NCBI GenBank assembly: GCA_021827645.1
Contig: JAKAVA010000055.1
Location: forward strand, 23,185-87,184
Direction of reading: 5' to 3'
DNA length: 64,000 bases
DNA from: Planctomycetota bacterium
GTDB lineage: Bacteria; Planctomycetota; Phycisphaerae; WQYP01
Part shown: positions 37,658-62,118 of the stretch, in pieces
Numbering within the stretch: position 1 is the first letter of the stretch
Layout of the letters: each line of letters opens with the position of its first letter
Translations under genes and position numbers: made by a program
Notes under the pieces: generated by a model
Database searches by the model: none
Told to the model about the DNA's origin: nothing
What the model saw: the letters and a program-made list of their open reading frames with translations, nothing else

Positions 37658-37691
37658 TGATAAACTCCGGGCAGACCCTCTTTATGGCATT

Positions 37692-42129: not shown

Positions 42130-43080
42130 ATGGCCAGAAAACCCTACAGCAAGATGCGATCGCAGTTGTGGAAATTCATCGAGATTAACCGCCAGTTGCG
42201 AGAACAAAAACGCACCGGGCGCCCATGCACAAAAGAAACCTTGCTTAAAGGACTCCGTTACGATGTCAACGAGCGAACCCTTCGCCGCACGCTTGAATTA
42301 ATGCGCGACGAACTCGGTGCTCCGATCGTCTACGACCGATTGCTGCAAACGTACAAATTGCAACATGACGATTGGCGTATGCCGAATATTTCCCTGGATG
42401 AGGCTGAACTGCAGGTGTTGGCGACCGCCATCCAAGCCGTCAGACCGGTTTTGCCCAAACCAATGTCCGAGCGTCTCGATAAGTTGCTGGCGAAATTGCT
42501 GGATGCCTTACCGCTTAGCCGTTGCGACGCCGTCCGACGGGCTCAAGGGCAGATTGAATTCGTTCCGGCCCCGATTCTATCCAAAGGTATGGAGTGGTTG
42601 GAACCGCTTTACCTGGCGATTCTTGATCGATATTCGGTGGATATGGTCTACCATGTGCCGAGCCGGGATGAGAATACCCGTCGCCGCTTTGATCCCTACT
42701 ACCTGCGCAACGTCCAAAGCATCTGGTATGTCGTCGGTTATGACCATTTCACCAGACATTGGCCGATCTTCAAACTGGCGCGGATTCGAGAATTAACGGT
42801 TTCTGAAGACTTATATACCGTCAAACCCTTCAGCGCCGCGAAATATTTCAAAAACAGTTTGGGCATTATGGTCGGCGGCAAGCCGCAGCACGTGCGTATC
42901 CGATTGACCGGCTATGCGGCGAGCACCGCGGAGGAGTATGTGTGGCCGGATGGCTTCACGTGCCGGCGCAACGGCCCCGGTGAGGTGATTCTTTCCGGTC
43001 AGATTGTTCATATGGCAGAGTTGCTGCAATGGACAGTGGCGTTTCAGGGGGATGCGGAAATCCTGCCGGAAGAGAAATAA
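42130..43080 (+). CDS. WYL-domain transcriptional regulator (N-terminal wHTH, WYL, C-terminal WCX-like region), BrxR/CapW-like
   Basis: N-terminal HTH (SKMRSQLWKFIEINRQLREQKRTGRPCTKETLLKGLRYDVNERTLRRTLELMRDELGAPI), central WYL-type beta region (RRRFDPYYLRNVQSIWYVVGYDHFTRHWPIFKLARIRELTV), C-terminal extension. ~316 aa, the typical size. Preceded by a ~430-bp AT-rich intergenic region. Confidence 0.75.
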   Translation: MARKPYSKMRSQLWKFIEINRQLREQKRTGRPCTKETLLKGLRYDVNERTLRRTLELMRDELGAPIVYDRLLQTYKLQHDDWRMPNISLDEAELQVLATAIQAVRPVLPKPMSERLDKLLAKLLDALPLSRCDAVRRAQGQIEFVPAPILSKGMEWLEPLYLAILDRYSVDMVYHVPSRDENTRRRFDPYYLRNVQSIWYVVGYDHFTRHWPIFKLARIRELTVSEDLYTVKPFSAAKYFKNSLGIMVGGKPQHVRIRLTGYAASTAEEYVWPDGFTCRRNGPGEVILSGQIVHMAELLQWTVAFQGDAEILPEEK

Positions 43081-43270
43081 TCTACCATCGACCCTCCGTT
43101 GCCCCTTTGCCCATGTTTATGCAAAGGTCAAAGGTCGAAGAGCCGTGGCCGGCCAAACCCGTAGGACAACATCTGTCCGTGGCATGTGGTATGACATATG
43201 CGTTAACTATTTGGCGTAGCCGGAGGCTTTCCCTCCCGTAATTGGCCTGCATGCGGAAAGGAGCTTAATC

Positions 43271-45601
43271 ATGAATGACCAGACCCAATCCACGGTCGCC
43301 GCACATCAATTCCCCTCTGTCGTCATCTGCAGTGAAGACGCCGCACCCTCCATGAGCTTTACCCAAGTTCGCGAAAACCCTTACCTCTGCGTCAAAACGC
43401 TCAAGTTTTTAGAGACATTTCTGCAGTCGGAAAAAGGCATCTTGGAAGATAATGACTTTTTTCATTTTATAGTTCACATCCTCGGCAAGCACAACACCCT
43501 TGATATGGGACGGCAATATTGTTCATTTGATGGGCTGCGCAGCATCACCAAAAGCATGCTGGAGGAATCAAATGAAGACGTAGCATCTCATGTGCTCGCG
43601 GATCTCTGGAGCCATCCCCGCACTCATGCGGCCATTAAGAAGGCCCTCCTTGCCGCCCTGGCCGAACAGAGTGAACATTGGAACAGGATCGCGGCAGAAA
43701 CAAAGGATCAAGACGTCATACGACATCGCTTCGAAGAGTTGTCGCGTCTCCTCGGGCTTACGGATGTCGAATTGGATATGCTGCTCCTCGCCTATGTCCG
43801 CTACGCGGATATCTGGGACTGGTGCTCCCTTGGGCGCACGCGCCCCGTCCGCAGGGCGTTTCAGCGAATTTGCGTCATCGCACGAATTCTCAGCCTTCCG
43901 CAGGCGGTGGCCGCAAAATATCTCCTGGAAAACGCCAAGCTCCGTTCGCTCGGGTGTCTTGATTCCGACCTTGACTTCCGATCTGAATTGGAGCCTTTCC
44001 TGATCGGCCTCTCAGAGGATCCGCTGGCGTCGAAATATTTTGTCCGCTGCAACGAGCCAGCCCTGCCGTGGTCGATGCACGGCACCCTTGCCGATCAGCA
44101 CGGCGAATGGCTCAAACGGCTCATTTGCAACCGTGATCCGAATCGCGGATTGAATATTCTGCTTTACGGCGTCCCCGGTACCGGCAAAACATCCTTTGCT
44201 CTCTCGCTGGCTGCCGAACTTGGCTATGAAATGTATCGTATTCGCGGGGCGGAGGAATTTGACAGCGATCCGATCAACTTCTGGCCCCGCTTCGCCGCGC
44301 TGCGTATCTGCGATGGTCAGGCGAATCGTGACCGCAGCCTGATCCTGATTGATGAGGCCGATGATATGCTTGATAGCGCCGGGGTCCCGTTGGGGGAGGT
44401 TAGCGCAGGTGTGACTGACGGGCGAACCGACAAAAAAGAAACACTTAATATCATCTTGGATCAACTCAGGACGCCGTGTATCTGGATCACCAACAATCAA
44501 CCGCATCATCTGGCGTCCTCGTCGCGCCGCCGGTTTGATTACTCCATTGAATTTACGCCCCTCCCGCAGCAGAAACGTCAACAAGTGTGGAAAAATCTGC
44601 GTCTGCGGTATGGACTGGCGGAAGTCATCAATGACGAAATGGTTGAGAGCCTTGCGCGACGATTCTCCATCAGCGCCGGTGGAATCGATCTGGCACTTCG
44701 CAATTTCGGCCGATTGGCACACGATCCGGCAGTTGCGGCCACCGCCATGGAATCCCTTGAGCACTTACTTCGACCGCATTGCGAACTAATGGGTATTGAC
44801 CTCGATGGCGATGCACCAACATCGATAGAATATTACTCGCTTTCCGGCCTCAATATCCGTGGACCGATTGGGCCGCAGCGTCTCTTGCAGGCAGCACGAG
44901 AGTTCCATCTGCGGCACGAGCATCGGGGGCCAACTGATAGGCGTATTCCCGGTTGTGCGCATCTGGCGGTGCTTCTCTCCGGGCCGCCGGGAACAGGCAA
45001 AACCGAATTCGTTAAATTTCTCTCCCGCGACTTGGATTGTGCTGTCCGCACCATCATGCCCGGCGATCTGCTGAGCCGATATGTCGGCGGTACGGAGCAG
45101 AACATCCGGCGGGTATTTCGAGCCGCTGCGGCTGATAAAGCCATTCTCTTTCTCGATGAAGCCGATGGCCTGTTTCGATCCCGTTCCCTTTCAGACCGAA
45201 GCTGGGAAGTGACGCAGGTTAACGAATTGCTGTCTGCCATGGATCAATTTGCAGGCATACTGGTTTGTGCTACCAATTCAGTCCAAATGCTCGATGCCGC
45301 GACCATTCGCCGCTTCACCTTTAAGCTGGAATTTGATTATCTGGATGCGGCCGGAAAGAGGGAATTTTATCAGCGCTTGCTGGTGGAACTGTGCCAGGAG
45401 CCATTGGATGGCAATCAGCAGCGCCGCCTGAATCAGATTGCCGATCTGGCGCCCGGCGATTTTTACACCGTGCGACAGGCGATGTCCTATCTGGGCGAGG
45501 GTCACAACTTCACTCACGACGATCTGCTCGCTGCTTTGGAAGCAGAAAGTCGTGCCAAACGCTTCGGCAAATCGGGCAATTTCGGTTTCGGACGGGGGTG
45601 A
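43271..45601 (+). CDS. Tandem AAA+ ATPase with ~290-aa N-terminal domain of unknown function
   Basis: Two classical AAA modules. Module 1: Walker A GVPGTGKTS, Walker B LILIDEADDM, sensor ITNN, Arg finger SSRRRFDYSIEF. Module 2: Walker A GPPGTGKTE, Walker B ILFLDEADGLF, sensor ATNS, ATIRRFTFKLEF. The RRF-type second region of homology resembles Vps4/spastin-clade AAA. The N-terminal domain is not recognisable. Confidence 0.75.
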   Translation: MNDQTQSTVAAHQFPSVVICSEDAAPSMSFTQVRENPYLCVKTLKFLETFLQSEKGILEDNDFFHFIVHILGKHNTLDMGRQYCSFDGLRSITKSMLEESNEDVASHVLADLWSHPRTHAAIKKALLAALAEQSEHWNRIAAETKDQDVIRHRFEELSRLLGLTDVELDMLLLAYVRYADIWDWCSLGRTRPVRRAFQRICVIARILSLPQAVAAKYLLENAKLRSLGCLDSDLDFRSELEPFLIGLSEDPLASKYFVRCNEPALPWSMHGTLADQHGEWLKRLICNRDPNRGLNILLYGVPGTGKTSFALSLAAELGYEMYRIRGAEEFDSDPINFWPRFAALRICDGQANRDRSLILIDEADDMLDSAGVPLGEVSAGVTDGRTDKKETLNIILDQLRTPCIWITNNQPHHLASSSRRRFDYSIEFTPLPQQKRQQVWKNLRLRYGLAEVINDEMVESLARRFSISAGGIDLALRNFGRLAHDPAVAATAMESLEHLLRPHCELMGIDLDGDAPTSIEYYSLSGLNIRGPIGPQRLLQAAREFHLRHEHRGPTDRRIPGCAHLAVLLSGPPGTGKTEFVKFLSRDLDCAVRTIMPGDLLSRYVGGTEQNIRRVFRAAAADKAILFLDEADGLFRSRSLSDRSWEVTQVNELLSAMDQFAGILVCATNSVQMLDAATIRRFTFKLEFDYLDAAGKREFYQRLLVELCQEPLDGNQQRRLNQIADLAPGDFYTVRQAMSYLGEGHNFTHDDLLAALEAESRAKRFGKSGNFGFGRG

Positions 45602-46177
45602 ATGGTGAATTTTATAGCTATTGATTTTGAAACCGCCAACCGATCTGACGAAAGCATCTGTGCCGCAGGTATGGCGATATTTACCCATGGTAGGCTTTTG
45701 GACGTGCGGCATTGGCTGATCCGACCGCCAAGGGGTTTTGATCGGTTCCGTTCGGATTGGACGGAAAGCCTCCATGGCATCGGGCACGCCGATGTGCAGA
45801 ACTCACCCTATTTCCCGGGTATCGCTGAACTATTATTTCCTCAGCTGGCCTCGGCCGATGTGGTCATTGCGCATAACGCCGCTTTCGATCTGCGAAAACT
45901 TCTGGCTACAGCCCGATGTTTCAACTTGGTCGTTCCACAGTTTGATTGCTTGTGCACGCTGGCACTGGCTCGCCGGGTTTGGCCTGATTTAGAAGGTCAT
46001 TCTCTCGACGTGCTCTGCGCCCACATCGGCCATCGGGGCCATCATCATCATGCCGGTGCAGATGCCGAGGCCGCGGGGCGTTTACTACTGGCGATGATGG
46101 CCACTACCAACACCGCGACGCCGCGTGCCTTGGCCAAAAAGCTCGGAATCCAGCCGCGCCCCGTGCCGGGCCGGTAA
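45602..46177 (+). CDS. DEDDh 3'-5' exonuclease (DnaQ/RNase T-like)
   Basis: Exo I (IAIDFETAN), Exo II (VVIAHNAAFDLRKL), Exo III with a His-rich run (HRGHHHHAGADAEAAG). Start ATG overlaps the stop of the AAA+ gene (TGAATG), suggesting translational coupling. Confidence 0.75.
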   Translation: MVNFIAIDFETANRSDESICAAGMAIFTHGRLLDVRHWLIRPPRGFDRFRSDWTESLHGIGHADVQNSPYFPGIAELLFPQLASADVVIAHNAAFDLRKLLATARCFNLVVPQFDCLCTLALARRVWPDLEGHSLDVLCAHIGHRGHHHHAGADAEAAGRLLLAMMATTNTATPRALAKKLGIQPRPVPGR

Positions 46178-46658
46178 TCGGCTGGGCGTGCCCATTGCCC
46201 ATTTTCTGCATAAAGCCGCGACCGGCGGCCGAACCGCTTTGTTTTCTGGCGTGGCCCCACCATTTGCCGGCCACGCTGCGTGTTGGCTGGGCCACGGATG
46301 GTGAACGCGGCCTTCTGCGCGATCACACTTCCGTCATCTCCGGGCAGGTAAAACGCATAGGACAATATCTGTCCGCATCATCGGGTAACTTTATCCGTGT
46401 TGAGCGTCCGGGCCGGCCGGGCGGATGGCATTTTAATGGAAGGGGAAATCATGAAGCCGTTGCTTGAAACCACACCGGCGCTGCTGGGCATGTCCGTATC
46501 AGGGGCGGTGGCCTGCGCGGGCAGCCCCGCCGATTATTATCCTTACCACGCACGGGAATGAGATTATTATTGACGAGTGATAGCCGCCGGTACCGGCCAG
46601 GTACCACGGATGTTTTGGTTGTTTTGTGGTTCGAATTCGCTAATAAGGGGGTATTATC

Positions 46659-47783
46659 ATGGCCAACATGGATGATCGTTACTTTGACTACTACGGCAAG
46701 TTGGTCGAGGCGTTTGTCCGCGACGTTGAGTCGCTGCAGCATCCGGACGTCGACAAGATGCCTTATCCGCATCTGCCGCTATTCGGGGGTGGCTATGAAC
46801 AGTCCGCCCTCAAACTGGTGATAGTTGGACAGGATACGAAGGGATGGGGCGACCTGAAAAAGTACCTGGCGGACGCCAAGGGCGACCCCGGCGCCGCACT
46901 CCGGTCTGATCTGGAGGAGTTCCGCCGGCATGAGTTCACCAAATGGGGATCGCACCGCCACACCTTCTGGGGTTTCGCCATTATGGCGCTTGCGGCGATC
47001 CATGGCCAGCCCAATTGGGGGGTGATGAAAAATGGTGGCCTGAAGGAAGTCTTGGATAGCTTCGCGTGGGCCGAGGCCAACGCGGTCGAGCTTTTTAAGG
47101 GGGAATGGAAGGGTGTGCCGCGTGATTACTGGGAGAAGGTGCAGGCCGCCGGGAAACGTTTCGACGGTATCCACCATCTGGTCGAGGTGCTCAAACCCAA
47201 TGTGGTCATCGTTTTGTATTGGGGGCTCAAGAAAGAAGACTACTTCCATGGCTACGATCGCGAGGACGTGAGCCAGAACGGTCGATTTACGCACTTCAGG
47301 CTGCCGACAGCTAAACTCGACGTCCTGCATATGCCGCATCCAAGGAGCATGGGCCCTAGAGAAAAGGCGGATTTCTTCTGCAAGGCGGCCAAATCCCTTA
47401 TGGACGACCTTGGTTTCGCGAAGAACTTTCCGGAGTTCGTGAACGGTACCCAGGAGGCTGCCCAAACCGTCGAGTTTCTGACCAAAAACGCTCCGGAAAT
47501 CTCTGGTGAGTTTGACAAATACGCGCTGGTCGCTTGGATTGCCACGGAGCTTGCCAAGCGCCAGGCGTTTATGTCGGTGCCTACACTCGCAAGCATTATT
47601 AACGCGAAGGGGGGACGCACCAACGGCGGCGAACGCTTCTCCGGCGGCCGCGGCACCTACCGGCTCGTCAGTGGTTCCTACCAACGCTACGATAAACAGG
47701 GCAAGGGCAAAATTGCGGAATCCATAGCGGAGGCCTTTCGTAGGCCAAATTTCGATTACGCCTACCCCCGTGGAGCAAGCTGA
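46659..47783 (+). CDS. Hypothetical protein with motifs resembling the uracil-DNA glycosylase superfamily
   Basis: LKLVIVGQDTKGW resembles UDG motif A (GQDPY, water-activating Asp). NVVIVLYWGLKK ... LDVLHMPHPRS resembles the LLWG strand and HPSPLS motif B of family-1 UDG, with similar spacing. Weak, memory-based similarity. Own AT-rich upstream region. Confidence 0.3.
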   Translation: MANMDDRYFDYYGKLVEAFVRDVESLQHPDVDKMPYPHLPLFGGGYEQSALKLVIVGQDTKGWGDLKKYLADAKGDPGAALRSDLEEFRRHEFTKWGSHRHTFWGFAIMALAAIHGQPNWGVMKNGGLKEVLDSFAWAEANAVELFKGEWKGVPRDYWEKVQAAGKRFDGIHHLVEVLKPNVVIVLYWGLKKEDYFHGYDREDVSQNGRFTHFRLPTAKLDVLHMPHPRSMGPREKADFFCKAAKSLMDDLGFAKNFPEFVNGTQEAAQTVEFLTKNAPEISGEFDKYALVAWIATELAKRQAFMSVPTLASIINAKGGRTNGGERFSGGRGTYRLVSGSYQRYDKQGKGKIAESIAEAFRRPNFDYAYPRGAS

Positions 47784-49702: not shown

Positions 49703-50491
49703 TCACCGATTCTCAATCCGACCGAGTAAACGCAGCAGACCGTCGAGAATGGTGAGCGGATGCGGTGGGCAGCCGGGAATGTAAAGGTCCACCGGTAATA
49801 AATCTCCAATGCCATTATGTGTTTCCGGATGATCCACATACGGCCCGCCTGAGCAGGCGCAGGCACCTACGGCAACGACTATTTTCGGTGAAGGCGTGGC
49901 GTGATAGGCCGAAAGCAGTGCGTCCTTCATATTTGCGGTGACCGGGCCGGTAACGATTAAACCGTCCGCATGCCGCGGTGAGGCGACAAACGAAATCCCA
50001 AAGCGTGATAAATCCCAGCCGATGGTGGTAAGCACATTCAGATCGGATTCACATCCGTTGCACCCACCGGCAGAAACCTGTCTCAGGTGCAGGCTTCGGC
50101 CGAAAATCTTCCGCGTTTTTTCGTTCAGCGCGGCTGCAAGTCTTATTTCGTCCCCGTTGTTAATCGTCAGATCAATCTCACTGCGCACGGCAAGGCGATA
50201 ATCCTGCGCATGACGGATTGCGCCATGTGGGCAGGCATCGGCACAATCGGTACAGAAAAGGCATCGGCCGAGATTGACGCGGATACGTCCGGCTTCAATC
50301 TGGATCGCGTCAGTGGGGCAGGCACGCACGCATTCTTCGCACCCCTCCGGGCACCGGGCCGTGTCGATTATGGGGCGTCCACGGAATCGGCCCGGCAATT
50401 CGGGCGGCGGCCCGTCGGGAAATGCCATCGTGCGATACCCCTGCTCCAATCGAGTTTTAAGCTGTTCGAGCATCTGCATCTCCGAAATCAT
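49703..50491 (-). CDS. Fusion of 2x[4Fe-4S] ferredoxin (HycF/NuoI-like) and NuoB/HycG-like small subunit
   Basis: N-terminal two CxxCxxCxxxCP motifs (CPEGCEECVRACP; CLFCTDCADACP). C-terminal NuoB-type cluster ligands (GGCNGCESD, GACACSGGPY, IPGCPPHP). Confidence 0.8.
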   Translation of the reverse strand: MISEMQMLEQLKTRLEQGYRTMAFPDGPPPELPGRFRGRPIIDTARCPEGCEECVRACPTDAIQIEAGRIRVNLGRCLFCTDCADACPHGAIRHAQDYRLAVRSEIDLTINNGDEIRLAAALNEKTRKIFGRSLHLRQVSAGGCNGCESDLNVLTTIGWDLSRFGISFVASPRHADGLIVTGPVTANMKDALLSAYHATPSPKIVVAVGACACSGGPYVDHPETHNGIGDLLPVDLYIPGCPPHPLTILDGLLRLLGRIENR

Positions 50492-50527
50492 ATTTTCGCG
50501 AGCGGTGGCTGACGGATAACGGACGAA

Positions 50528-52075
50528 TCATAAGTCGCACCCGCAATAGGATAAGCTGAAACTTTTATTACAAAGTGGAAAGTCTGATATCTGTCCTCCC
50601 CGCATCGCCATGGCCAGGCCAAACCAGTTGTGGATCGACGGATCGGTGATGTTGTAATGTTCAAAGCGGCCGTCTGCATCGGTTAACACTGCGTGACACA
50701 GCTCGCCACGCCATGACTCCTGCAGGCTTACGGCAAACATGTCGGCTCCCAGGGCGGCGAACGGAGTGAAAGTATCACCCGACGGCAGAGATTGGAGTTG
50801 TTCACGAACAAAAGCGATGGAGTGTTGAATTTCCAGCCCACGAACATATGCCCTGGACAGCACATCGCCACCTTGGGCCGTCACCACAGGCAGATGCGTA
50901 AAGCGATATATTCCGCTCGGGTGATCGCGGCGGCTGTCCATATCAATACCACAGGCCCGTGCGGCTACACCGACCACACCGAGCTCTAACGCTGTTTTCC
51001 GCGGCAGGATGCCGGTGTGTTCAAACCGGGCGGTGACCGAAGGGGTGTTCCATAAAAGTTCAACAGCCGGCAGAAGGTTTTGCTGCGCATCAGCAAGTCT
51101 GCGGAGCAACTCAGCTCTGAGTTGATCATCGATATCAAAACCGGTTCCTCCAACTTTCACCAGCCCCCGTCCAAATCGGTTGCCGCAGAGCATCGCCGTC
51201 ATATTGAGAAAATCGCCGCGAATACGGCCGCAGTAGGATGCAGTCGGAAGAAATGCGGCATCTTTGGCCAGACCACCCAGGTCGCCGACATGGTTGGCGA
51301 TCCGCTCAAGCTCCAGAGCAATGCCTCGGATCGCGGCTGCCCGCGGACTCACCCGGCACGACGCCAAGGCCTCGACATTCTGGGCATAGGCGCATCCGTG
51401 GGCGATGGTTGAATCGCCGCAGAGCGTTTCGGCATAATGCCAGGAGCGTTTATTCGGCCCACCTTTCAGCGCCCGTTGTACCCCTCGATGCTGATATCCC
51501 AACGATATCTCCAGGTGCAGGATGGTTTCGCCGTCGCACTGGAATCGGAAATGTCCCGGTTCAATGACGCCGGCATGAATGGGCCCGACCGCCACCTCAT
51601 GCACCTGCCCGCCGTCAATGTGATAAAAATCCATGATCCCGACCTTATCATCCGCCCCGGCGAAAGGTGAACTGCGTTCGGCTCTCCGGTCCACGCTGCC
51701 AGGAAACGCCACCGGCTTGAGCCACGGGTGGCCATGCAGAGGAACCGCCAGATTTTCTGCGATCTGCCTCTCAAAGAGATGCATCTGAAAGCAGCGAGGG
51801 GTCAGGGACGGATAGCCGCTTCGGGGAGCTGAAGTAGCAGATATGTAGAGCCGCCCTGTGTGATCGTGCGCCAAAACCGCATATAACACTATTAACTCGT
51901 CACTTGTCGGATCGGGGAGCCCGAAGTGGGTTACCACACGGCAACCGTCTTTGGCGACAGCGTTGGCAATCGCGTCCTGAAACGCGGACATTGGAAGCAC
52001 GGGGATATCTGCCCGCAGCACGGCACGGCCGCCGGTGATCGCGAGCATGGTATCGCGGTATGCGGGGGTGTTCAT
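50528..52075 (-). CDS. Fused NuoC-NuoD / HycE-like large subunit lacking Ni-Fe ligands (Ehr-type)
   Basis: NuoC-like N-terminal part and NuoD / [NiFe]-large-subunit fold (GPIHAGVIEPGHFRF). The L1 position reads ETLCGDSTIAH (RxCGxCxxxH with the second Cys changed to Ser). The L2 position reads DPSIHNW (DPCxxC with both Cys lost). Confidence 0.8.
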   Translation of the reverse strand: MNTPAYRDTMLAITGGRAVLRADIPVLPMSAFQDAIANAVAKDGCRVVTHFGLPDPTSDELIVLYAVLAHDHTGRLYISATSAPRSGYPSLTPRCFQMHLFERQIAENLAVPLHGHPWLKPVAFPGSVDRRAERSSPFAGADDKVGIMDFYHIDGGQVHEVAVGPIHAGVIEPGHFRFQCDGETILHLEISLGYQHRGVQRALKGGPNKRSWHYAETLCGDSTIAHGCAYAQNVEALASCRVSPRAAAIRGIALELERIANHVGDLGGLAKDAAFLPTASYCGRIRGDFLNMTAMLCGNRFGRGLVKVGGTGFDIDDQLRAELLRRLADAQQNLLPAVELLWNTPSVTARFEHTGILPRKTALELGVVGVAARACGIDMDSRRDHPSGIYRFTHLPVVTAQGGDVLSRAYVRGLEIQHSIAFVREQLQSLPSGDTFTPFAALGADMFAVSLQESWRGELCHAVLTDADGRFEHYNITDPSIHNWFGLAMAMRGGQISDFPLCNKSFSLSYCGCDL

Positions 52076-53511
52076 GGAGATACCTCGATGTATCGCTGTG
52101 CCTGATGCAGGAGTTTAACCAACGGGGCTGGCACATGGAGCCCGAGCAGAAGGATCAGCGCCAGTAACATGAGCGGTGGGGCTACCGACAAAAAACTATC
52201 CCGAAACTGGGTATGGTAGAGGCGTCCGGGGAGCGGACGCCCCATGGTAACCGCCAGAACCGTCCGCCCCATCCCGAGAAATACCAGCAGCAGAAGGCCG
52301 ACGAAAGCCGCACCTAATAGAAAAAGATGGTCAACAAACGCTGCTTTCAGGATGGTAAATATGCCGACGAACGGCCCAAAAGGTGGCGATCCGGTGATGG
52401 CCAGAAATCCAATCATGAAGAGGGTTCCGGAAACAGGCTCTCGGCGGACGGCGCCGTGAACATCATCCGAGGATTTACTTCCATAGGCGCGATGAATATT
52501 CCCTGCCGATAGAAAGAGCATTCCCTTGGTAAGTCCATTATTGATCATCTGAAGCAGGGCACCATAGAGAGCGGGCCCGCCAATCCCGGCCCCCAGTGCC
52601 AGAATACCCATCTGCTCAACACTGGAATATGCCAGCATCCGCTTGAAATCTTTCTGTCCCATTAGAAAGACCGCCGCGACCGCCATCGAAAAGATACCGA
52701 TTGCAATAAGCAGATGGCCGGTGTAGGCACGCATGCCGGCTGCCACACAGACTCGCATGATTCGCAGGATGGCAAGAAAGGCGCAGCTCGTAAGAACACC
52801 CGCGAGTAGAGCACCAACGATGCCCGGCACTTCGCCATAGGCATCCGGCTTCCAGGTGTGCATGGGCGCCAAACCCATCTTAGTTCCGTATCCGATAAGC
52901 AGAAGCACAAATGCCATTTTCAACCAGACCGGATCTGCATCTCGGGCGTGGGCTAACAGTTGCGAAAAAAGCAGACCGGGTGTGTGATGATGAACCAGAA
53001 ACGCATAGACGAGAAAAAATGAACCAAGCAATGCTATTGCGATACCGACCGAGCAGATGAGCAGATATTTCCAGGTGGCTTCAATACTTTCCGGTGTGCG
53101 TCGGAAGTAAATCATGGGCGCGGTACACAAAGCAGTGGTCTCCATCGCAATCCAGATGAGCCCCAACTGCTGGGAACAGGTCATCAGCGTGGCACCGCCC
53201 AGAAAACCCAGCAGACAAGGAGCCAGCACGCGATTGAATCGCCCCGGCCATTGGCGCAGATAGCCGGTTCCATAGAGCGTACAGATGAAGAACAGAATAC
53301 TGGTGAGTAGCAGAACCAACTCACCGGGCGGGTCAAGACCTATCCAACCGCCGCAGATGGCTGGCGGCGGGTCGATCAGAATGGCAGCAGTGAGGAACAA
53401 ATGCGTAGCAGACGCTGCAAACACAATCCACGGTCTTAAACGGTCGGAATGGACGGCGGCGGCGGGCAGAGCGGCCAGGAAGGGGAGCAATATGATCGCG
53501 GCAAGCAGCAT
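52072..53511 (-). CDS. NuoN/NuoM/HyfF-like proton-pumping antiporter subunit
   Basis: ~14 TM helices. Mrp/complex-I antiporter-like conserved core. ATGA-type overlap with neighbours. Confidence 0.75.
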   Translation of the reverse strand: MLLAAIILLPFLAALPAAAVHSDRLRPWIVFAASATHLFLTAAILIDPPPAICGGWIGLDPPGELVLLLTSILFFICTLYGTGYLRQWPGRFNRVLAPCLLGFLGGATLMTCSQQLGLIWIAMETTALCTAPMIYFRRTPESIEATWKYLLICSVGIAIALLGSFFLVYAFLVHHHTPGLLFSQLLAHARDADPVWLKMAFVLLLIGYGTKMGLAPMHTWKPDAYGEVPGIVGALLAGVLTSCAFLAILRIMRVCVAAGMRAYTGHLLIAIGIFSMAVAAVFLMGQKDFKRMLAYSSVEQMGILALGAGIGGPALYGALLQMINNGLTKGMLFLSAGNIHRAYGSKSSDDVHGAVRREPVSGTLFMIGFLAITGSPPFGPFVGIFTILKAAFVDHLFLLGAAFVGLLLLVFLGMGRTVLAVTMGRPLPGRLYHTQFRDSFLSVAPPLMLLALILLLGLHVPAPLVKLLHQAQRYIEVSP

Positions 53512-53516
53512 GAAGT

Positions 53517-54164
53517 CTATTCCTTCAATGAAGTAAGCCTGCGAGTATCAAGCGAGGCAAAAGCGGAATGAATGTGATTGAGGATGATACAAACCACAAA
53601 AATCCCGACGAACAAATCCAGCAGGATGCCCAGTTCAACGAGAAAAGGGACCACCGCAAGCAGCAACATGCCGAAGATATAAATGCCGTTTTCAAGTATC
53701 AGGTAGCCGATGATCTGCGTCAGGGCCTTGAATCGCGTTGTCAGCAGAAGCAGTCCGGTCAGGATGGTGGACATGGATGCGGGAATGACCAGCAGAGATT
53801 TCGGATGATGCAGGCCAGATGCATGAATCGTCATCATCAGCGCTGCGGCCGTACCGGCGGCGCCGATGAGCATGCTGGGGATAAATCCGATCAGCGGCTC
53901 AACCTCATGTTTGATCCGGACGTCCCGCAACGCCTTGTCGAGCATTCGTGGTATGGTCCATCCCTTGATCCCAGCCGTAACCAGCGCCGTGATGAGAATC
54001 AGCGGGTCCACCTCTTTCACAAGCAGCAGGGGCAGGATGCTCAGCATGATCCCCTGCAGTGCGACCCCGGATATGAGTGATTTCATACGACTGACGCTCA
54101 GCAGGAAAAGATTCAGTAGCAGCACCATCGTCAGAATAGCATTAACCAGCCATGCCATCGCCAT
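53517..54164 (-). CDS. HyfE / MnhC-like small membrane subunit
   Basis: 215-aa polytopic membrane protein at the hyfE position of hyf/ehr-type operons. Confidence 0.5.
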   Translation of the reverse strand: MAMAWLVNAILTMVLLLNLFLLSVSRMKSLISGVALQGIMLSILPLLLVKEVDPLILITALVTAGIKGWTIPRMLDKALRDVRIKHEVEPLIGFIPSMLIGAAGTAAALMMTIHASGLHHPKSLLVIPASMSTILTGLLLLTTRFKALTQIIGYLILENGIYIFGMLLLAVVPFLVELGILLDLFVGIFVVCIILNHIHSAFASLDTRRLTSLKE

Positions 54165-55114
54165 TACCTCAACGCCAGAATAAAACCCAGGCCGCTGAGC
54201 ACGGCGGCGGCCGCCAGCAGCGTCGGAACATGGCGCAGCGGCAGGCGGGCCATTACCGATTCAATAATGCCGACAAGCACCGCCGTCGCAGATGCCTCCA
54301 AAATAAACAGCACCCAACTGAGGATGGGTATGCCGGTGTGCGGCGGGCCGATAAACAGCAGCACCAGATTGATCAGAATCAGCAACCGGAGACTGGAGGC
54401 GTACTGAACCGCCGCCAGCAGGGGACCGCTGTGATCCAGTACCATCACTTCATGGATCATGGTCAGTTCCAGATGTGTGTCGGGATCGTCGACCGGGACG
54501 CGGGACGTTTCCGCCAGCAGAAAGACAAACAGGCCAACGGCCGCCATGAGCCGTGGTCCGACCGAGCCCTGTTTGAAAGGTGCCAGCAGTAAGGTGTTGA
54601 GGCTCAGGCCGCTGGAAAACCGGATCATGATCAGCAGACTGAAAATAAGGGCGGCCTCGGAGACAACGGCAAAAGATACCTCTCGGGCAGCGCCCATCCC
54701 TTCAAAGGATGAGCCGGTATCCAGCGCCGCAGAGGTGGTAAAGAAGCGGGCCGCCGCGAACAGGTAAACAAATAATATGACATCACCGGCGAAATGGATT
54801 GGCGCCGGTGAGGAGCCGATGGGGATCAGTAATTCCACCGCGAGCATCGCTCCCACCGCAACGAGCGGACCGGCAAAGAATATCCATGTCGTTGTATTGC
54901 TGATGACAAGGGTTTTGCGGAGGAGTTTGAAGATATCCAGATATGGCTGCCGCAGGGGAGGGCCGCGCCGACCGGCCATCGCCGCTTTTACCTTGTTGAT
55001 GATGCCGGGAAATAGGGGCGCAATCGCCAGCGGAACTAGAAAATGCGTGGCGATGGAGAGGATGAGTTGCGGTGTCGTCGTGTGCAGCATGTCAGTGTCC
55101 CCATAGCCGGGCAA
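54164..55114 (-). CDS. NuoH / HycD-like membrane subunit
   Basis: N-terminal quinone-site-like region (LVPLAIAPLFPGIINKVKAAMAGRRGPPLRQPYLDIFKLLRK) and eight TM helices. Confidence 0.8.
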   Translation of the reverse strand: MPGYGDTDMLHTTTPQLILSIATHFLVPLAIAPLFPGIINKVKAAMAGRRGPPLRQPYLDIFKLLRKTLVISNTTTWIFFAGPLVAVGAMLAVELLIPIGSSPAPIHFAGDVILFVYLFAAARFFTTSAALDTGSSFEGMGAAREVSFAVVSEAALIFSLLIMIRFSSGLSLNTLLLAPFKQGSVGPRLMAAVGLFVFLLAETSRVPVDDPDTHLELTMIHEVMVLDHSGPLLAAVQYASSLRLLILINLVLLFIGPPHTGIPILSWVLFILEASATAVLVGIIESVMARLPLRHVPTLLAAAAVLSGLGFILALR

Positions 55115-57110
55115 AGAGGTTGCCGAACGGAATCAAGGCCAGCAGCACGACCACTGCCGCCAGCATGTAGAAGAGATATTGCTGCACGCTCCCTTGCTGC
55201 AGCCACCGAATCGGTCGTGTGCCGAGTTTGATGTAGTGCCAGAGCGTATGTGTTGCCCGGTCCGTTATGAAAGGGGGTATCTCCGTTTCATATTCGATGG
55301 GCTTGGGAAATAATCCGATGGGAGTTTTGCCGTGCGCAAGGGGCCGAAGCACCCAGCTCCAGAGGCCCACCAAAATGCCGGCGAACGATGTGCCTGTATA
55401 TTGCATGCGGCTTCCAGTGGCCGAATATCCACAGCCCCACGTGGGTGCGCTGGCGACGGGGATAAATCTCCGCGAGATTCGGACAAGGTAAAAAATGGCA
55501 ACGGCCACGACGACCATGCTGAAATTCAGCACGGTAAGCGTCCCCCATGGAAAAGCCCGGATCAGCATGCCCTGCACGTGAGCACGGCCCATCCACACCG
55601 CAGCGGCATGGCTCAGCGGAACCAGCACCACCAGAGGAAACACCCCCACGAGCCCGCAGAGCCCCGCAAGCAGAAGCATCGGTGCAATCATGCTGCCCGG
55701 GGATTCATGCACCTTGGCGGCACGCTCTGTGCGCGGCGAACCCAGAAACACAACCCCGTATACTTTCACAAAGCAAGCCACAGCCAAACTTCCAACCACT
55801 GCAAGAATGACGGCGTCGGCCGAGATCAGTGCCCAGATTCCCGAATCCTTTCCCGCAGTTGGATGGAAGAGCCCCAGATAGACGAGCAGTTCGCTGACGA
55901 ACCCGTTGAGCGGGGGCAGCCCGCAGATGGCCAAGGCTCCAACCAGAAAGAGATTACTGCTCCAGGCCATATGCCGCGCCAGTCCGCCCAGCGCATCGAT
56001 CTGCCGCGTTCGCGCTGCAGAAATGACCGAACCGGCTGAAAAAAACAGAAGCGATTTAAAGAGTGCGTGATTCCAGACATGCAGGAGACATCCGGCAATT
56101 CCCAGCACTTCCCAGACCGGGTGATCGGTTGCGGCTCCGATCATCGCCACGCCCAATCCCATGAGAATAATGCCAATGTTTTCAATGCTGTGATACGCCA
56201 GCAGTCTTTTCATATCATGCTGCCCCAGAGCGTAGACGACGCCCAGCAGTGCATTGATGGAGCCGAGAATCAGAACCATCACACCCCAGAGGGCGGGGGG
56301 GTGCGGCAGTAACGTCAGAATTCTCAGCAATCCATAGATGCCGATTTTCAGCAGAACGCCGGAAAGCAGGGCGGAAATATGGCTGGGTGCCTGGGCATGT
56401 GCCCCGGGCAGCCAGAAATGCAGCGGCATAATACCAGCCTTAAGCCCGAAGCCGACAAGGGCCAGCAGGAATAGAGCAGTTTCAATCTTCCATCCTGCTG
56501 CAGCCGGTAAGGGGACCAGCAGAAAACTGCCCGAGGCGGCGTGCAGAAGCGCGAATAATGCCATGAGCAAAAGTGTGGCAAGATGGGTGGCAACAAAATA
56601 AATCCAAGCCGCCTGTCGACACGCCGGATTCTGATCCTCGGTCGCAATCAGAAAAAAGCTCGCCAGTGCCATGATTTCCCATGCCATGATGAACGCCAAA
56701 CCGTCATCGGCAACCGTTACCAGCACCATGCCGGCAACGAACAGTCCGTAAAAAAAACGCAACCGGCGCCCGGTGCGAGGATGCCGACGCTCATTCCAAT
56801 ATCCCTGCCCGTAAACAGATCCGGCTGCGGCCATCACAAAGACCGGCAGTGCAAAAAAAGCGGAAAGCGGATCAAGGCGGAAATGGAGCGGCCAGTTGGG
56901 ATACACCGCCCGTACGGTCAATACGGGTGCCGGCCCATTTAAAAAGAGCAGTACGTCGAGACAGACCGCCGCACCTAAGGCGCCGCCAAGACAGGTGAGT
57001 GCGGTTGCAGACATTTGTCCCCACGAGGCTCGAGCTTTTGCCGCCAGTCCAAGTGTTCCGGCGACCATGAGCAGCAATGCCGCACCCAAGAGTAAAATCA
57101 ATGGAAACAT
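55092..57110 (-). CDS. NuoL / HyfB-like antiporter subunit
   Basis: 672-aa, ~16 TM helices, conserved NuoL-family core (WLPGAHAQAPSHISALL...). Confidence 0.8.
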   Translation of the reverse strand: MFPLILLLGAALLLMVAGTLGLAAKARASWGQMSATALTCLGGALGAAVCLDVLLFLNGPAPVLTVRAVYPNWPLHFRLDPLSAFFALPVFVMAAAGSVYGQGYWNERRHPRTGRRLRFFYGLFVAGMVLVTVADDGLAFIMAWEIMALASFFLIATEDQNPACRQAAWIYFVATHLATLLLMALFALLHAASGSFLLVPLPAAAGWKIETALFLLALVGFGLKAGIMPLHFWLPGAHAQAPSHISALLSGVLLKIGIYGLLRILTLLPHPPALWGVMVLILGSINALLGVVYALGQHDMKRLLAYHSIENIGIILMGLGVAMIGAATDHPVWEVLGIAGCLLHVWNHALFKSLLFFSAGSVISAARTRQIDALGGLARHMAWSSNLFLVGALAICGLPPLNGFVSELLVYLGLFHPTAGKDSGIWALISADAVILAVVGSLAVACFVKVYGVVFLGSPRTERAAKVHESPGSMIAPMLLLAGLCGLVGVFPLVVLVPLSHAAAVWMGRAHVQGMLIRAFPWGTLTVLNFSMVVVAVAIFYLVRISRRFIPVASAPTWGCGYSATGSRMQYTGTSFAGILVGLWSWVLRPLAHGKTPIGLFPKPIEYETEIPPFITDRATHTLWHYIKLGTRPIRWLQQGSVQQYLFYMLAAVVVLLALIPFGNLFARLWGH

Positions 57111-57116: not shown

Positions 57117-57836
57117 CTATCGCCTTACGTTCGATGCTATCGGTGCGGCTGAGGAAGGAATTTCCGCCTCCGCCAGAACCAGCGCATCCAGCAGGCCCTC
57201 GCGGGAAATCTGATCCAGTACAGCACGGCGAAAAAAGCCGTTCCGCAGGACAAAACCCAAGCGGGACAGAAGATGAAGATGCGCCCGTACCGTCGGGCTT
57301 ACGAGTGTGAATAACGTGGTGACGGGTCGTTGATCCATGGCGCCGAACTCAATCGGGTTCTCCAGAAAGCACAGCGCAACCAGCGGCCGCGAAAGGTGCA
57401 AAACGACAGGATTGCGGACATGTGGAATGGCAATACCGTCACCGATTGCCGTGGAGCCCAGCATTTCACGTGCGAGCAGAACCTGGTAGAGAAATTCTCG
57501 ATCAACCTCATCGGGAAGATTCATAATGTCGACCACCGCCCGGAGCACCTCTTCGCGATTGGTGCCGCCGACGCGGTAATGCACGCCGCCAGCGCGAAGG
57601 GCATCGGTCAAAGTTGGAAGGGGGGAATCTCCCCCTTCCGGCTCCTGAAATATTTCCGGCGAGACGTTAAGCCGATGGGATGTAGCCCACTCCAGGAGTT
57701 CAGCACGGTTGAAACGATATTGATCACTCACCTGGTAGGCTGGGATGGAGCCATTTTTGATCCACCGGTAAATGCTCTTTTCCGACACATTCAGCAATCT
57801 CGCAGCATCTTTGACGGTCAGTTTCACGGCGATCAT
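57117..57836 (-). CDS. HTH_17 (excisionase/MerR-like) DNA-binding domain fused to PTS EIIA type-2 (EIIA-Ntr-like) domain
   Basis: N-terminal HTH (LTVKDAARLLNVSEKSIYRWIKNGSIPAYQV), C-terminal EIIA-2 domain with phosphorylatable His motif GIAIPHV. First gene of the Ehr-like operon, 6 bp before the NuoL-like gene. Real start may be the GTG at 57827 (AGGAG 9 nt upstream). Confidence 0.7.
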   Translation of the reverse strand: MIAVKLTVKDAARLLNVSEKSIYRWIKNGSIPAYQVSDQYRFNRAELLEWATSHRLNVSPEIFQEPEGGDSPLPTLTDALRAGGVHYRVGGTNREEVLRAVVDIMNLPDEVDREFLYQVLLAREMLGSTAIGDGIAIPHVRNPVVLHLSRPLVALCFLENPIEFGAMDQRPVTTLFTLVSPTVRAHLHLLSRLGFVLRNGFFRRAVLDQISREGLLDALVLAEAEIPSSAAPIASNVRR

Positions 57837-57886: not shown

Positions 57887-58039
57887 GATAAGAAACAATT
57901 AGAAAGTACGCCGATGCGGTGGATATTCTTAGGTGTTTTGCCGGTATTTACGTATTCGCAAATATATATGATATATTCGCGTTTATCAATGTTTTAAGAA
58001 CAGTGGTTCTGGTAGTCTGGTAAGACGATATGACGCGTG

Positions 58040-58462
58040 TCATTTCCCAAGTTGGTTGAAAATATCCTTCAGGGCACAGGTTGCCGCGAGTACTGCAGGA
58101 AACCCCGCATACAGCGCGCAGTGTTCGGTGATGCCGATGATTTCTTCTCTGGTGATTCCGAGTTTCAGCGCGGCGCGGACATGCGATTGAAATTCGCGTC
58201 CCAGATGCCCAAGACATATCAGGGCGGTAAGGGTGGAGATCTGACGAGATCGTGCGTCAATTTTTGGACTCTGGTAAACGGTACCGTAGCCGAACTCAAT
58301 AATCCATTTTTTCAGTTCGGGATTGATCTCATCCAGCGACGAGAGAACCTCAACCCCAAAGTCACCATGAAGTTGCCGGAGCCTGTTTTGCCCTGATTGC
58401 GTTTTTTTCTTTCGGCCTGCGGTGGGATTTTTTCGATGTGGAAGCGGTGCACTTTTTGCCAA
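58040..58462 (-). CDS. Carboxymuconolactone decarboxylase (AhpD-like) family protein
   Basis: CMD-family core including the conserved EIIGITEHCALYAGFP helix with Cys-x-x-x-His. Lys/Arg-rich N-terminus makes the true start uncertain. Confidence 0.65.
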   Translation of the reverse strand: MAKSAPLPHRKNPTAGRKKKTQSGQNRLRQLHGDFGVEVLSSLDEINPELKKWIIEFGYGTVYQSPKIDARSRQISTLTALICLGHLGREFQSHVRAALKLGITREEIIGITEHCALYAGFPAVLAATCALKDIFNQLGK

Positions 58463-60687: not shown

Positions 60688-62118
60688 CTATCTCGCGGCC
60701 ACACTTTGCTTAGAAACCGGAACCGCTGATGGGCGTCGGGTACCGGCTGACTCGTCCGCCATGCGGCGGGATTTTGCGGGGCTCGGCTGAAGCGCTTCCG
60801 CACCCGTCTCGATATCTCGCTTTACCTTTGCAAGACCTCGCAGAATATCGGAGGCGGTTTTATACGGGCTATTGGCACGATCTTCCGGCCGTAATATCTC
60901 GCTGGTCAGATACTTGATATGCCGCGCTTCAGGGCTTCGTGGATCGTAACTGATCAGACCGACAAAATCAGGGTTCTGGTGGGGCGTATTCATCTGGTAA
61001 GCGAGGTAGAACAGATCTACAGCCTTATCCACCTTGTGCACACCCTGGCAAAGGACATCGGATGTCACCAATCCTTTTTCGCTCATGGTGTACAGCATGC
61101 GCTGAATCTGGCTGGTCCGCATCATTTCCTCAAAGAGCGTTGAGAGCAGCGTGTTATCCCCGAAAGACTCGCCTACACGCACGGCAGAGCCGAAATCGAT
61201 GAAGCCGACACCCTCGGATGTAATGACGAAATTATCCAGCCGGAGATCAAGATGAATCACGCCGACCTTATCGTGAAGCACCTGCAGCAATTCGGTCGCC
61301 TGGGTTGCAAATTCGAGTTGCGAAATCATTCGTCCGCCGTTGCGAAGCCAGTTCATATAGAGCGTCCGAACAAACCCCTTGGAATCATGCTCGACGCCCA
61401 GACATCGGGGAACACGGTCGCTGTATGGTTTGGGCAGATCTCGCTGAAGGATTTTGAGCATGGCCGCCTCGCGGCTCAGGAATACAGGAAATATTTTGTC
61501 CGTAAATTTCAGCGCCCGACGCCGTAACTCATCCATCGGGGTGTCTGGAAATTTCTGGCGCAGTCTCGACATCACGCGGTCCACCGTGGGTACCTGTTTC
61601 ACTACGACGTATTCGACCTCATTGCCGTTTCGGCGGCTGGCGAGCTGCACACTGTAAGTGAATCGGTCGGTCGATTCCCCCGGCCTCAACAGATGGACCC
61701 TCCGGGCGATAAAATAATGGTACTTTTTGCCGAAGATTGGGAGTCCGAAAAAAGTTTTCTTCAGTTCTGTCGGCGGCAGATCGATGACAAATCCCTCGTG
61801 TTTCACATACCGGGCAGCCAACTCGCGCAACTCCGCCATATCTTCCGAGGCAACGATCACCCTGCCACCCCAGCGGATCATAGAAAATGACTCCTCAGGG
61901 CCGTAACGCTTGTCGGCAGGCAGGAACACATGGTAGGGAAGGCCCCTATCTTCACCCTTATCCGATTCATGGGTAACGCTGTCCGCCCGCAGATATTCCG
62001 CATCTCGGGCAAAACGCTTTTCTTTGACAAAGCCGGTGGCATCTGTCAGGGGAATGCTTGCCGCATTCAGAGGTTTTCGACGTACTGCCGATTTGGATTC
62101 AGGAGTTGGTTCAGGCAT
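60688..62118 (-). CDS. Protein-kinase-like (ePK fold) protein with unknown N-terminal domain
   Basis: Catalytic loop HLDLRLDNFVI (HxDxxxxN) followed by the DFG motif (GFIDFGSA). No canonical Gly-rich loop seen. The N-terminal ~230 aa is unassigned. Confidence 0.5.
   Translation of the reverse strand: MPEPTPESKSAVRRKPLNAASIPLTDATGFVKEKRFARDAEYLRADSVTHESDKGEDRGLPYHVFLPADKRYGPEESFSMIRWGGRVIVASEDMAELRELAARYVKHEGFVIDLPPTELKKTFFGLPIFGKKYHYFIARRVHLLRPGESTDRFTYSVQLASRRNGNEVEYVVVKQVPTVDRVMSRLRQKFPDTPMDELRRRALKFTDKIFPVFLSREAAMLKILQRDLPKPYSDRVPRCLGVEHDSKGFVRTLYMNWLRNGGRMISQLEFATQATELLQVLHDKVGVIHLDLRLDNFVITSEGVGFIDFGSAVRVGESFGDNTLLSTLFEEMMRTSQIQRMLYTMSEKGLVTSDVLCQGVHKVDKAVDLFYLAYQMNTPHQNPDFVGLISYDPRSPEARHIKYLTSEILRPEDRANSPYKTASDILRGLAKVKRDIETGAEALQPSPAKSRRMADESAGTRRPSAVPVSKQSVAAR

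Follow-up and report, generated by a model that had tools for sequence, protein, structure and literature searches.

An Ehr-family operon in a Planctomycetota contig that probably encodes a ferredoxin-linked, ion-translocating oxidoreductase

We analysed a 64,000-nucleotide (nt) stretch of contig JAKAVA010000055.1 from a Planctomycetota bacterium, called the window here and numbered from its first letter. On its minus strand at 57110-49703 lies an operon that a sequence-only reading had assigned to the energy-converting hydrogenase-related (Ehr) type and not to the canonical [NiFe] hydrogenases. Our comparisons bear this out, and we are highly confident that the operon encodes an Ehr-family complex. 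It is probably a ferredoxin-linked, ion-translocating oxidoreductase. Its large subunit has lost three of the four Ni-Fe ligands and is 53–55% identical to its counterparts at Geobacterales loci. Canonical Ni-Fe H2 chemistry is not expected from what is encoded.

The open reading frame (ORF) listing of the whole window gives six co-directional, closely packed ORFs on the minus strand at 57110-49703. By Pfam and NCBIfam, their order from 5′ to 3′ is HyfB/NuoL-like, NuoH-like, HyfE-like, HyfF/NuoN-like, NuoC::NuoD/HycE-like and the NuoI/HycF::NuoB/HycG fusion. The six-gene order and coordinates read earlier agree with both, although that reading left out of its span a regulator gene directly ahead. 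The seven genes, with lengths in amino acids (aa), are the following.

57117..57836, minus strand: regulator with an HTH_17 (excisionase/MerR-like) domain and a phosphotransferase system (PTS) EIIA type-2 (PtsN-like) domain; PF12728 8.7e-17, PF00359 5.1e-21, and NCBIfam PtsN/fruA domains

55092..57110, minus strand: EhrA, HyfB-like (NuoL/M family) antiporter-like subunit, 672 aa; PF00361 2.3e-50

54164..55090, minus strand: EhrB, NuoH-HycD-HyfC-like membrane anchor, 308 aa; PF00146 3.3e-32

53517..54164, minus strand: EhrC, HyfE-like small membrane subunit, 213-215 aa; NCBIfam PRK11492 1.9e-19 over the full length

52072..53511, minus strand: EhrD, HyfF-like (NuoN/M family) antiporter-like subunit, 479 aa; PF00361 1.3e-44, HyfF models 2e-90

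50528..52075, minus strand: EhrL, NuoC::NuoD/HycE-like large subunit, 515 aa; PF00346 (Complex1_49kDa) 2.4e-31

49703..50491, minus strand: EhrS, fusion of a NuoI/HycF/HyfH-like 2x[4Fe-4S] domain with a NuoB/HycG/HyfI-like domain, 262 aa; Fer4 families and PF01058 (Oxidored_q6) 1.1e-28

All seven ORFs are intact. EhrA matches the NCBIfam model of hydrogenase 4 subunit B at 2.4e-171, under its equivalog cut-off, and EhrS is also matched by the NuoB, HycF-type and NuoI models of NCBIfam; EhrC has no Pfam match. The EhrB start is taken as the ATG at 55090, which gives 308 aa and a TGA-C-ATG junction and is also used by the gene callers on identical contigs, while the mechanical ORF begins farther out at the TTG at 55114.

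Overlaps of the ATGA type had been claimed between the genes in general. One exists at the F/G junction only (genes lettered as in hyf); the C/E junction overlaps as TAATG, and the remaining structural-gene junctions are gaps of 1, 5 and 36 nt. The regulator stop codon precedes the first structural gene by 6 nt. The operon is not a chance arrangement, because the same operon recurs in hundreds of genomes.

The ligand motifs of group 4 [NiFe] hydrogenases are L1, RxCGxCxxxH, and L2, [DE][PL]CxxCxx[RH], with four cysteines between them. The register of these motifs in EhrL was set by phmmer against the PDB sequences and by alignments to HycE, HyfG, MbhL and three relatives carrying all four cysteines, called the 4-Cys relatives here. 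The top PDB match is HycE of the formate hydrogenlyase (FHL) complex (7z0s_E, 6.9e-41, about 24% identity), followed by MbhL and Nqo4, and MbsL is far weaker (5.9e-17). HycE 7z0s_E is also the best fold match of an AlphaFold2 model of EhrL.

The part of EhrL before the NuoD-like domain is NuoC-like, with the alignment starting at residue 83 for HycE and at residue 46 for E. coli NuoCD; PF00329 is precomputed for most close relatives. Three motifs of EhrL matter below.

51398..51430, minus strand: L1, ETLCGDSTIAH, aa 216-226, placed by alignment to HycE, MbhL and the 4-Cys relatives

50624..50644, minus strand: DPSIHNW, aa 478-484, a separate conserved motif about 30 residues before L2, placed by alignment

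50531..50563, minus strand: true L2, KSFSLSYCGCDL, aa 504-515, at the extreme C-terminus, placed by gap-free alignment to the 4-Cys relatives

At L1, ETLCGDSTIAH lies opposite DRVCGICGFAH of HycE, ERMCGICSFSH of MbhL and ERICGVCxxSH of the 4-Cys relatives. The first ligand is retained as C219 (MbhL C68) and the second is replaced by S222 (MbhL C71), just as had been read from LCGDSTIAH. Nearby, H226 corresponds to MbhL H75, and G220 occupies the position of Nqo4 Tyr87.

At L2 the sequence-only reading was out of register. It took DPSIHNW for L2, but the alignment puts this motif at HyfG AATYANW, with RSASYANW in the 4-Cys relatives and RTPSFAHL in NuoCD as further counterparts. The cysteine-containing C-terminal tail, thought to be present instead of L2, is L2 itself. 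There, KSFSLSYCGCDL aligns without gaps to KSFELCYSCTDL/R of the 4-Cys relatives and also to HyfG SLDPCYSCTDR. The core reads LSYCGCDL in EhrL versus LCYSCTDL in the 4-Cys relatives, and HycE ...GSLDPCY faces EhrL ...KSFSLSY in the phmmer alignment.

Both L2 ligand positions are replaced, by S509 and G512 (MbhL Cys374 and Cys377), and C511 and C513 each miss the ligand register by one residue. The Asp of the DPC motif (MbhL Asp372) is replaced by S507, and EhrL ends at L2 without a C-terminal extension. The loss of three of four ligands (S222, S509 and G512) was thus counted correctly before, partly for a wrong reason, and only C219 stays in register. The large-subunit alignment, which that reading had named as its own check, exposes the mis-registered L2 while confirming that the four cysteines are not all present.

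The pocket of EhrL keeps the proton-delivery Glu of hydrogenases as E172 (MbhL Glu21, in the beta1-beta2 loop), together with R456 (MbhL Arg320) and H226. I171 takes the place of MbhL Glu20, which is the position of Nqo4 His38 (PMC8679088 for the MbhL residue numbers and this equivalence). By residue alignment, the pocket therefore offers no Ni-Fe site, since the thiolate ligands are replaced, and no quinone site of the complex I type, since I171 and G220 stand at the quinone positions; the proton path of hydrogenases and the canonical Arg are both kept.

The Ehr name was given to Geobacter sulfurreducens GSU0739-0745 (Coppi; Marreiros et al. 2013, as cited in PMC7894505, PMC6349859, PMC10284858). 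This cluster comprises EhrA-1, further membrane subunits, the HyfE-like EhrC, EhrL and EhrS, and the name was later widened to a broad class without Ni-Fe ligands, whose function has been called never investigated or unknown (PMC7894505, PMC6349859, PMC10284858, PMC4758237). The Geobacter subunits are all expressed and orthologues were detected by proteomics (PMC7894505). The window operon shares with Geobacter Ehr the subunit types, namely NuoL-like EhrA, EhrB, HyfE-like EhrC, EhrD, EhrL and EhrS, and an EhrL devoid of CxxC.

The Geobacterales loci (Geomonas, Geobacter, Pelobacter and Geobacteraceae) are collinear with the window operon, and their EhrL is 53–55% identical, with ETxAGDTTxGH and SYCGFDL as its motifs. 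Ehr membership is well supported by this identity and collinearity, along with the group-4/complex I core operon and the CxxC-less large subunit. The orthology rests on these Geobacterales loci, and the G. sulfurreducens cluster itself was compared by description only. As differences, the window has one HyfB/EhrA-like gene and the Geobacterales have two, and the clade of the window keeps the L1 Cys at position 1 and has Cys at 513, not His, Phe or Asn.

The family is broad. An identical copy of EhrL is found in public Phycisphaerae-type metagenome-assembled genomes (MAGs), at least 8000 database matches lie above threshold, and the best 120 are all at least 57% identical. Most of the matches are labelled 'NADH-quinone oxidoreductase subunit C' or 'Ni,Fe-hydrogenase III large subunit'. 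Against representatives clustered at 50% identity, EhrL gives 794 matches at E<1e-30. Beyond the close relatives, the identity falls to 40% for a Variovorax plasmid copy, 35–36% for the 4-Cys relatives, 33% for rhizobial HyqG, 27% for HyfG and 25% for NuoCD, and EhrL resembles HycE and MbhL more than NuoD.

By a GTDB scan of one genome per species, the EhrL pattern occurs in at least 590 species. Carriers are found in Planctomycetota, Verrucomicrobiota, Geobacterales, Acidobacteriota, Gemmatimonadota, Spirochaetota and Lentisphaerota, in Fibrobacterota, Omnitrophota, Chlamydiota, Cloacimonadota, Desulfovibrionaceae and Alphaproteobacteria, and in others. The family consensus is ETLAGDTTVGH ... 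KSFNLSYCGHDL, which reduces to the signature [A/S/C]-G-D-[S/T]...H and S-Y-[C/S/A]-G-x-D-L.

Conserved across the family are H167, E172, D221, S/T222, H226, R456, D478, N483, S509, Y510, G512 and D514 of EhrL, and likewise D478, P479, S480, N483 and W484 of DPSIHNW. Position 219 is A, S or C and position 513 is H, N, F and others, while about 45% of diverse representatives have Cys at 511 and the others Ser or Ala. By this variation, the retained L1 Cys and C513 are read as clade-specific variants, not conserved ligands. Among the relatives at least 57% identical, C180, C282, C297, C460, C502 and C511 are invariant. A new Fe-S-binding 4-Cys constellation in EhrL was considered as a family trait and rejected, as the candidate cysteines are only 22–70% conserved among the 50%-identity representatives.

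The operon of the window is a typical member of a family already known and extremely common, and is nothing new in kind. Its seemingly special details, the retained Cys and the Cys-rich tail, are on the alignments mis-registered or lineage noise.

A bolder proposal is that the Ehr pocket is a new catalytic site binding a different metal or substrate, in a PTS-regulated ferredoxin-driven ion pump with a reaction new to the complex I superfamily. It draws on the family-wide E172, D221, S/T222, H226, R456, S509, Y510 and D514 and on C219, C511 and C513 of the clade. If true, the reaction could extend to proton/H2 chemistry without Ni-Fe, of the sort claimed for the rhizobial Hyq system. We regard this proposal as unlikely.

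EhrS is a real fusion, as had been noticed, and a family-wide one. Its N-terminal 110 residues align to HyfH/NuoI, which specifies the fused ferredoxin as NuoI/HycF-like, and Cys 47, 51, 54, 58, 77, 80, 83 and 87 form two ferredoxin motifs. The C-terminal domain aligns to HyfI, the HycG type and NuoB, with C144, C147, C211 and C241 as the ligands of the proximal [4Fe-4S] cluster. The proximal motif GGCNGCE has the CxxC spacing of hydrogenases versus the tandem Cys (SCCY) of E. coli NuoB, so differs from complex I N2, and the loop is of normal hydrogenase length.

All twelve Fe-S cysteines are thus present. As the eight ferredoxin and the four proximal-cluster cysteines come with an unshortened loop, EhrS by its ligands makes up a complete three-cluster electron wire.

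The loop bears also on MBS/Mbx of Pyrococcus furiosus. Mbx-like complexes had been listed before among those with largely unknown substrates, which no longer holds since MBS is a sulfane-sulfur reductase (PMC7684303). Like the window complex, it is hydrogenase-derived, ferredoxin-fed and membrane-bound, with part of the Ni-Fe ligands lost (PMC7684303). It differs in keeping two Cys, in a small-subunit loop so shortened that the proximal cluster has three Cys ligands, in having no proton pathway and in a full Mrp module.

The Ehr complex might then be an MBS-like sulfane-sulfur (polysulfide) reductase whose proximal [4Fe-4S] cluster is catalytic. MBS is the sole characterised hydrogenase-derived complex with lost Ni-Fe ligands, and it takes ferredoxin electrons through three [4Fe-4S] clusters (PMC7684303). 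Its loop, however, is three residues shorter with one Fe lacking a Cys ligand, whereas the EhrS loop is the normal GGCNGCE without the 3-residue shortening. Moreover, the operon has only four membrane genes and no Mrp module, E172 of the proton path is conserved in EhrL, and MbsL matches EhrL far less well than HycE, MbhL and Nqo4. An MBS-like reaction is therefore very unlikely.

For the membrane arm, the antiporter-like subunits were aligned to E. coli NuoL/M/N and HyfB/D/F. The charged chain of EhrA is complete, with E145, K224, K255, H344, H348, K352 and E407 matching the key residues of NuoL/M/N and HyfB. The chain of EhrD is partly degenerate, with E124 (TM5; TM, transmembrane helix), K211 (TM7) and K329 present. 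Ion translocation chiefly through the HyfB-like EhrA is plausible from these residues. The earlier view of a membrane-bound and probably ion-translocating complex is in line with the full Glu/Lys/His/Glu chain of EhrA.

The missing catalytic ligands, and the two channel residues that EhrD is short of, would also suit a hydrogenase operon in decay or a cation transporter that works without redox chemistry. Against either, the seven ORFs are intact and tightly packed with all twelve Fe-S Cys kept, dozens of residues are invariant across phyla in an operon of at least 590 species, and the Geobacter orthologues were seen by proteomics (PMC7894505). We hold this reading to be extremely unlikely.

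Complex I/NDH-1 shares with the window complex the NuoB, C, D, H, I and L/M/N-type homologues and the conserved antiporter-like residues. It differs in that the window has no NuoEFG and no separate NuoA, NuoJ and NuoK genes, and lacks the Tyr/His quinone site (G220, I171) and the tandem-Cys N2 motif.

In one version of the preferred oxidoreductase explanation, with a specific choice of the acceptor, the complex is an ion-pumping ferredoxin:quinone oxidoreductase. It would hand electrons of the proximal cluster to menaquinone in the manner of photosynthetic NDH-1, Fpo or an 11-subunit complex I, lacking an NADH module as they do. The NuoH-, NuoB-, NuoD- and NuoI-like parts and the antiporter-like subunits are all there. 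The carriers include many quinone-containing aerobes and anaerobes (Gemmatimonadota, Variovorax, Rhizobium, Geobacterales and Acidobacteriota), and Hyq was modelled as a quinone reductase by its authors (PMC3357923).

Yet both head-group residues are gone (Nqo4 Tyr87 to G220 and His38 to I171), the small subunit has the hydrogenase CxxC instead of the tandem Cys-Cys of N2, NuoA, NuoJ and NuoK are not separately encoded, and EhrL is nearer to HycE/MbhL than to NuoD. Quinone is the most economical guess for the acceptor, though with the defining quinone-site residues absent, and we rate this version as possible but doubtful.

Among the hydrogenases, E. coli hydrogenase 4 and FHL (Hyf/Hyc, group 4a) are close in layout, sharing the hyfB-C-E-F-G-H-I synteny, the small-subunit CxxC and the beta1-beta2 loop EPGHF, with HycE as the best solved-structure match. 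In contrast to them, the window complex lacks three Ni-Fe Cys and the DPC Asp and has HyfH and HyfI fused into one gene. The operon is also without hyfA, hyfD and hyfJ, and has no formate dehydrogenase, hyp or protease genes nearby. The 4-Cys relatives, in which the C-terminus likewise stops exactly at L2, are probably the 'group 4f' neighbours that PMC10284858 mentions, at 35–36% identity.

The rhizobial Hyq system (hyqRBCEFGI in Azorhizobium/Rhizobium) resembles the window operon in its B-C-E-F-G-I order with a regulator gene first (PMC2650096, PMC3357923). HyqG, of about 504 aa, is like EhrL a NuoC::NuoD fusion, and it has the degenerate motifs GRTSGDSTVAY and KSFNCSYSGHDL (GDST, SYSGHDL). 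The window operon is nevertheless not of the Hyq type, since HyqG is 33% identical to EhrL and the Hyq small subunit has 177 aa without a fused NuoI-like ferredoxin. Hyq differs further in being nif-regulated in Azorhizobium.

H2-related phenotypes are reported and hydrogenase activity is claimed for Hyq (PMC2650096, PMC3357923). The earlier statement that homologous Ehr/Mbx-like complexes are not hydrogenases therefore needs this qualification for the related Hyq, while it stands for canonical Ni-Fe chemistry in the window complex.

This raises the idea of a non-canonical hydrogenase whose altered site would still interconvert H+ and H2, the activity attributed to the rhizobial Hyq 'endo-hydrogenase'. 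Hyq has the gene order hyqBCEFGI and the degenerate motifs in common with Ehr, and its deletion altered H2 phenotypes in Azorhizobium (PMC2650096, PMC3357923). The Ehr pocket retains the hydrogenase proton-delivery Glu, His and Arg, and the clade has C219, C511 and C513 near the former site.

On the other side, three of the four Ni-Fe ligands are absent in register and C219 and C513 are not family-conserved (A/S/C and H/N/F). No linked hyp or hycI gene is found in the window or at 82 related loci. HyqG is only 33% identical and the Hyq small subunit is unfused, and the evidence on Hyq comes from genetics and physiology, not from enzymology. Mainly because of the Hyq H2 phenotypes, we keep a non-canonical hydrogenase as a rival of low probability, quite unlikely on balance.

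The 82 related loci were compared by calling their ORFs and querying these with the proteins of the window. Nearly all show the order [regulator]-B(-B)-C-E-F-G-HI. Among the 56 loci with a HyfB-like gene and room upstream, 38 have one such gene and 18 have two, including Geomonas and Pelobacter. The ferredoxin and NuoB domains are both covered in 69 of the 80 small-subunit homologues.

HypA-F, HycI and HycH, searched with the E. coli queries, have no homologue in the 64 kb of the window or in the flanks of the 82 loci, out to about 10 kb. As a positive control of this search, HycE found the large subunit at every locus. Clustering of the non-operon ORFs of the 82 loci brought out no recurrent partner gene. 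The recurring families are generic (histidine kinase at 12 loci, ABC ATPase at 8 and SulP transporter at 7, mostly in Verrucomicrobia).

Outside the operon the window carries housekeeping genes, rhamnose/sulfatase genes and the operon of an F-type ATP synthase, none of them related to hydrogenases. That no partner dehydrogenase adjoins the operon, as stated earlier, thus applies to the whole window and extends to the 82 loci.

Three variations of the loci are of separate interest. At L053 (a Verrucomicrobia MAG) and L032 (a Geobacteraceae MAG), a second group-4-type operon adjoins the Ehr operon. The second large subunit of L053 scores 300 bits against E. coli HycE and may be a true hydrogenase; such loci would permit a within-genome comparison of Ehr with a real hydrogenase. 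A B-REG-B-C-E-F-G-HI variant, with a HyfB-like gene upstream of the regulator (REG), occurs at L045, L052, L054, L056, L058, L065, L070 and L072 (Verrucomicrobiota and related MAGs), and at L024, L032 and L066 a divergent B-REG pair faces the operon.

Mechanistically, we consider it likely that the six subunits form a membrane-bound core derived from a group-4 [NiFe] hydrogenase and working along the following general route. A low-potential soluble donor, probably ferredoxin, would feed the NuoI/HycF-like 2x[4Fe-4S] domain, docking there as in the MBH, MBS, FHL-type and NDH-1 complexes. Electrons would then move to the proximal [4Fe-4S] cluster of the NuoB/HycG-type domain, and the acceptor may be reduced in the pocket at the interface of the large, small and NuoH-like subunits. 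This redox step would drive, or be driven by, H+ or Na+ translocation, with the HyfB-like EhrA as the main route. The donor, acceptor and ion are assigned by homology, because no Ehr complex has been characterised biochemically or structurally.

Several points weigh against this route. Our literature searches turned up no work on Ehr function or structure, and the PDB copy that we searched holds no Ehr structure; the best PDB match, HycE, is only about 24% identical. The AlphaFold2 model of EhrL, with a predicted local distance difference test (pLDDT) score below 50 at residues 121-195 and 483-515 of the pocket, is usable for the fold assignment only. EhrD lacks two key charged residues, with the TM8 Lys replaced by S242 and the TM12 Lys/Glu by I384. 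The hyp negative covers the 64-kb window and the locus flanks, and hyp genes may lie elsewhere in the genome. There is also genetic evidence that rhizobial Hyq handles H2, though it too is without the canonical ligands (PMC2650096, PMC3357923).

The regulator gene accompanies the family. Of the 56 related loci with upstream sequence, at least 40 have a homologue ahead of the operon, a minimum since some Verrucomicrobia B-REG-B loci were missed by the distance rule. The adjacency spans many phyla (L005 2175-2900, L006 2309-2989 and most of L008-L086), and the His of the conserved phospho-His motif GDGIAIPH is invariant among these homologues. Our literature searches found no mention of an HTH_17-EIIA regulator of Ehr.

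A regulator co-transcribed with, or adjacent to, Ehr operons suggests expression control of the PTS(Ntr) type. With such a protein co-transcribed, Ehr expression would probably be tied to the PTS (Ntr-like) phosphorylation state, that is, to the carbon, nitrogen or energy status.

Equating HyqR with this HTH_17-EIIA regulator was also considered and rejected. At the Rhizobium johnstonii locus, the sole upstream gene that looks like a regulator codes for a 104-aa helix-turn-helix (HTH) protein about 5 kb from the large-subunit gene, which is too short for EIIA and is not shown to be HyqR.

The region upstream of the regulator was searched for promoters, for sigma-54 on account of the PtsN-like regulator and the NifA/sigma-54 control of hyq. 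The intergenic stretch before the regulator has no sigma-54 promoter consensus, and across the window such sites are fewer than chance predicts. The sigma-70-like sites number 7 versus 5.6 expected in shuffles, not significant alone. The top one is weak.

57961..57989, minus strand: sigma-70-like promoter match TTGATA-17-TATATT (10/12), intergenic, upstream of the regulator

Directly upstream of the regulator at 58040-58462 (minus strand) is a gene for a 140-aa carboxymuconolactone decarboxylase (CMD/AhpD-like). It is present on the near-identical contigs L002-L004 and is not among the families common to at least three of the 82 wider loci.

Ehr is among the most widespread members of the complex I/hydrogenase superfamily that lack an assigned function, and is routinely mis-annotated. 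The comparison sharpens its definition as a fixed unit of seven to eight genes with a near-universal NuoI::NuoB fusion, a replacement motif at the Ni-Fe site, a retained hydrogenase proton path, no linked partner enzyme and a conserved EIIA-type regulator. As a caution, Ehr genes are not to be counted as hydrogenases in metagenomic surveys. These features provide experimental handles in the cultivable carriers such as Geobacter, Geothrix, Fontivita and Variovorax.

Elsewhere in the window, a possible defence-like island lies on the plus strand at 42130-47783. It encodes a regulator with a WYL domain, a protein of 776 aa that has two AAA+ domains and is IetA-like by PADLOC (2.4e-37), an exonuclease of the DEDDh/RNase T-like kind (PADLOC DEDDh 2e-23, PDC-S48 4e-23) and a 374-aa protein without a family match. 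This block also adjoins the Ehr operon on the identical MAG contig L001.

An ordinary-looking F-type ATP synthase operon at 17680-24503 (plus strand), about 25 kb from the Ehr operon, has its a, b, alpha, gamma and beta subunits identified. A polysaccharide-use cluster at 29759-39095 (minus strand), with GH106 and GH78 alpha-L-rhamnosidases, a RhaT-type rhamnose transporter and a sulfatase, fits a heterotroph of the Phycisphaerae type. The ORFs at 60688-62118 (minus), 27011-29287 (plus) and 39825-41702 (minus), of 476, 758 and 625 aa, have no Pfam match, and the 476-aa one contains an HLDLRLDNF...DFGSA stretch resembling a protein-kinase catalytic loop.

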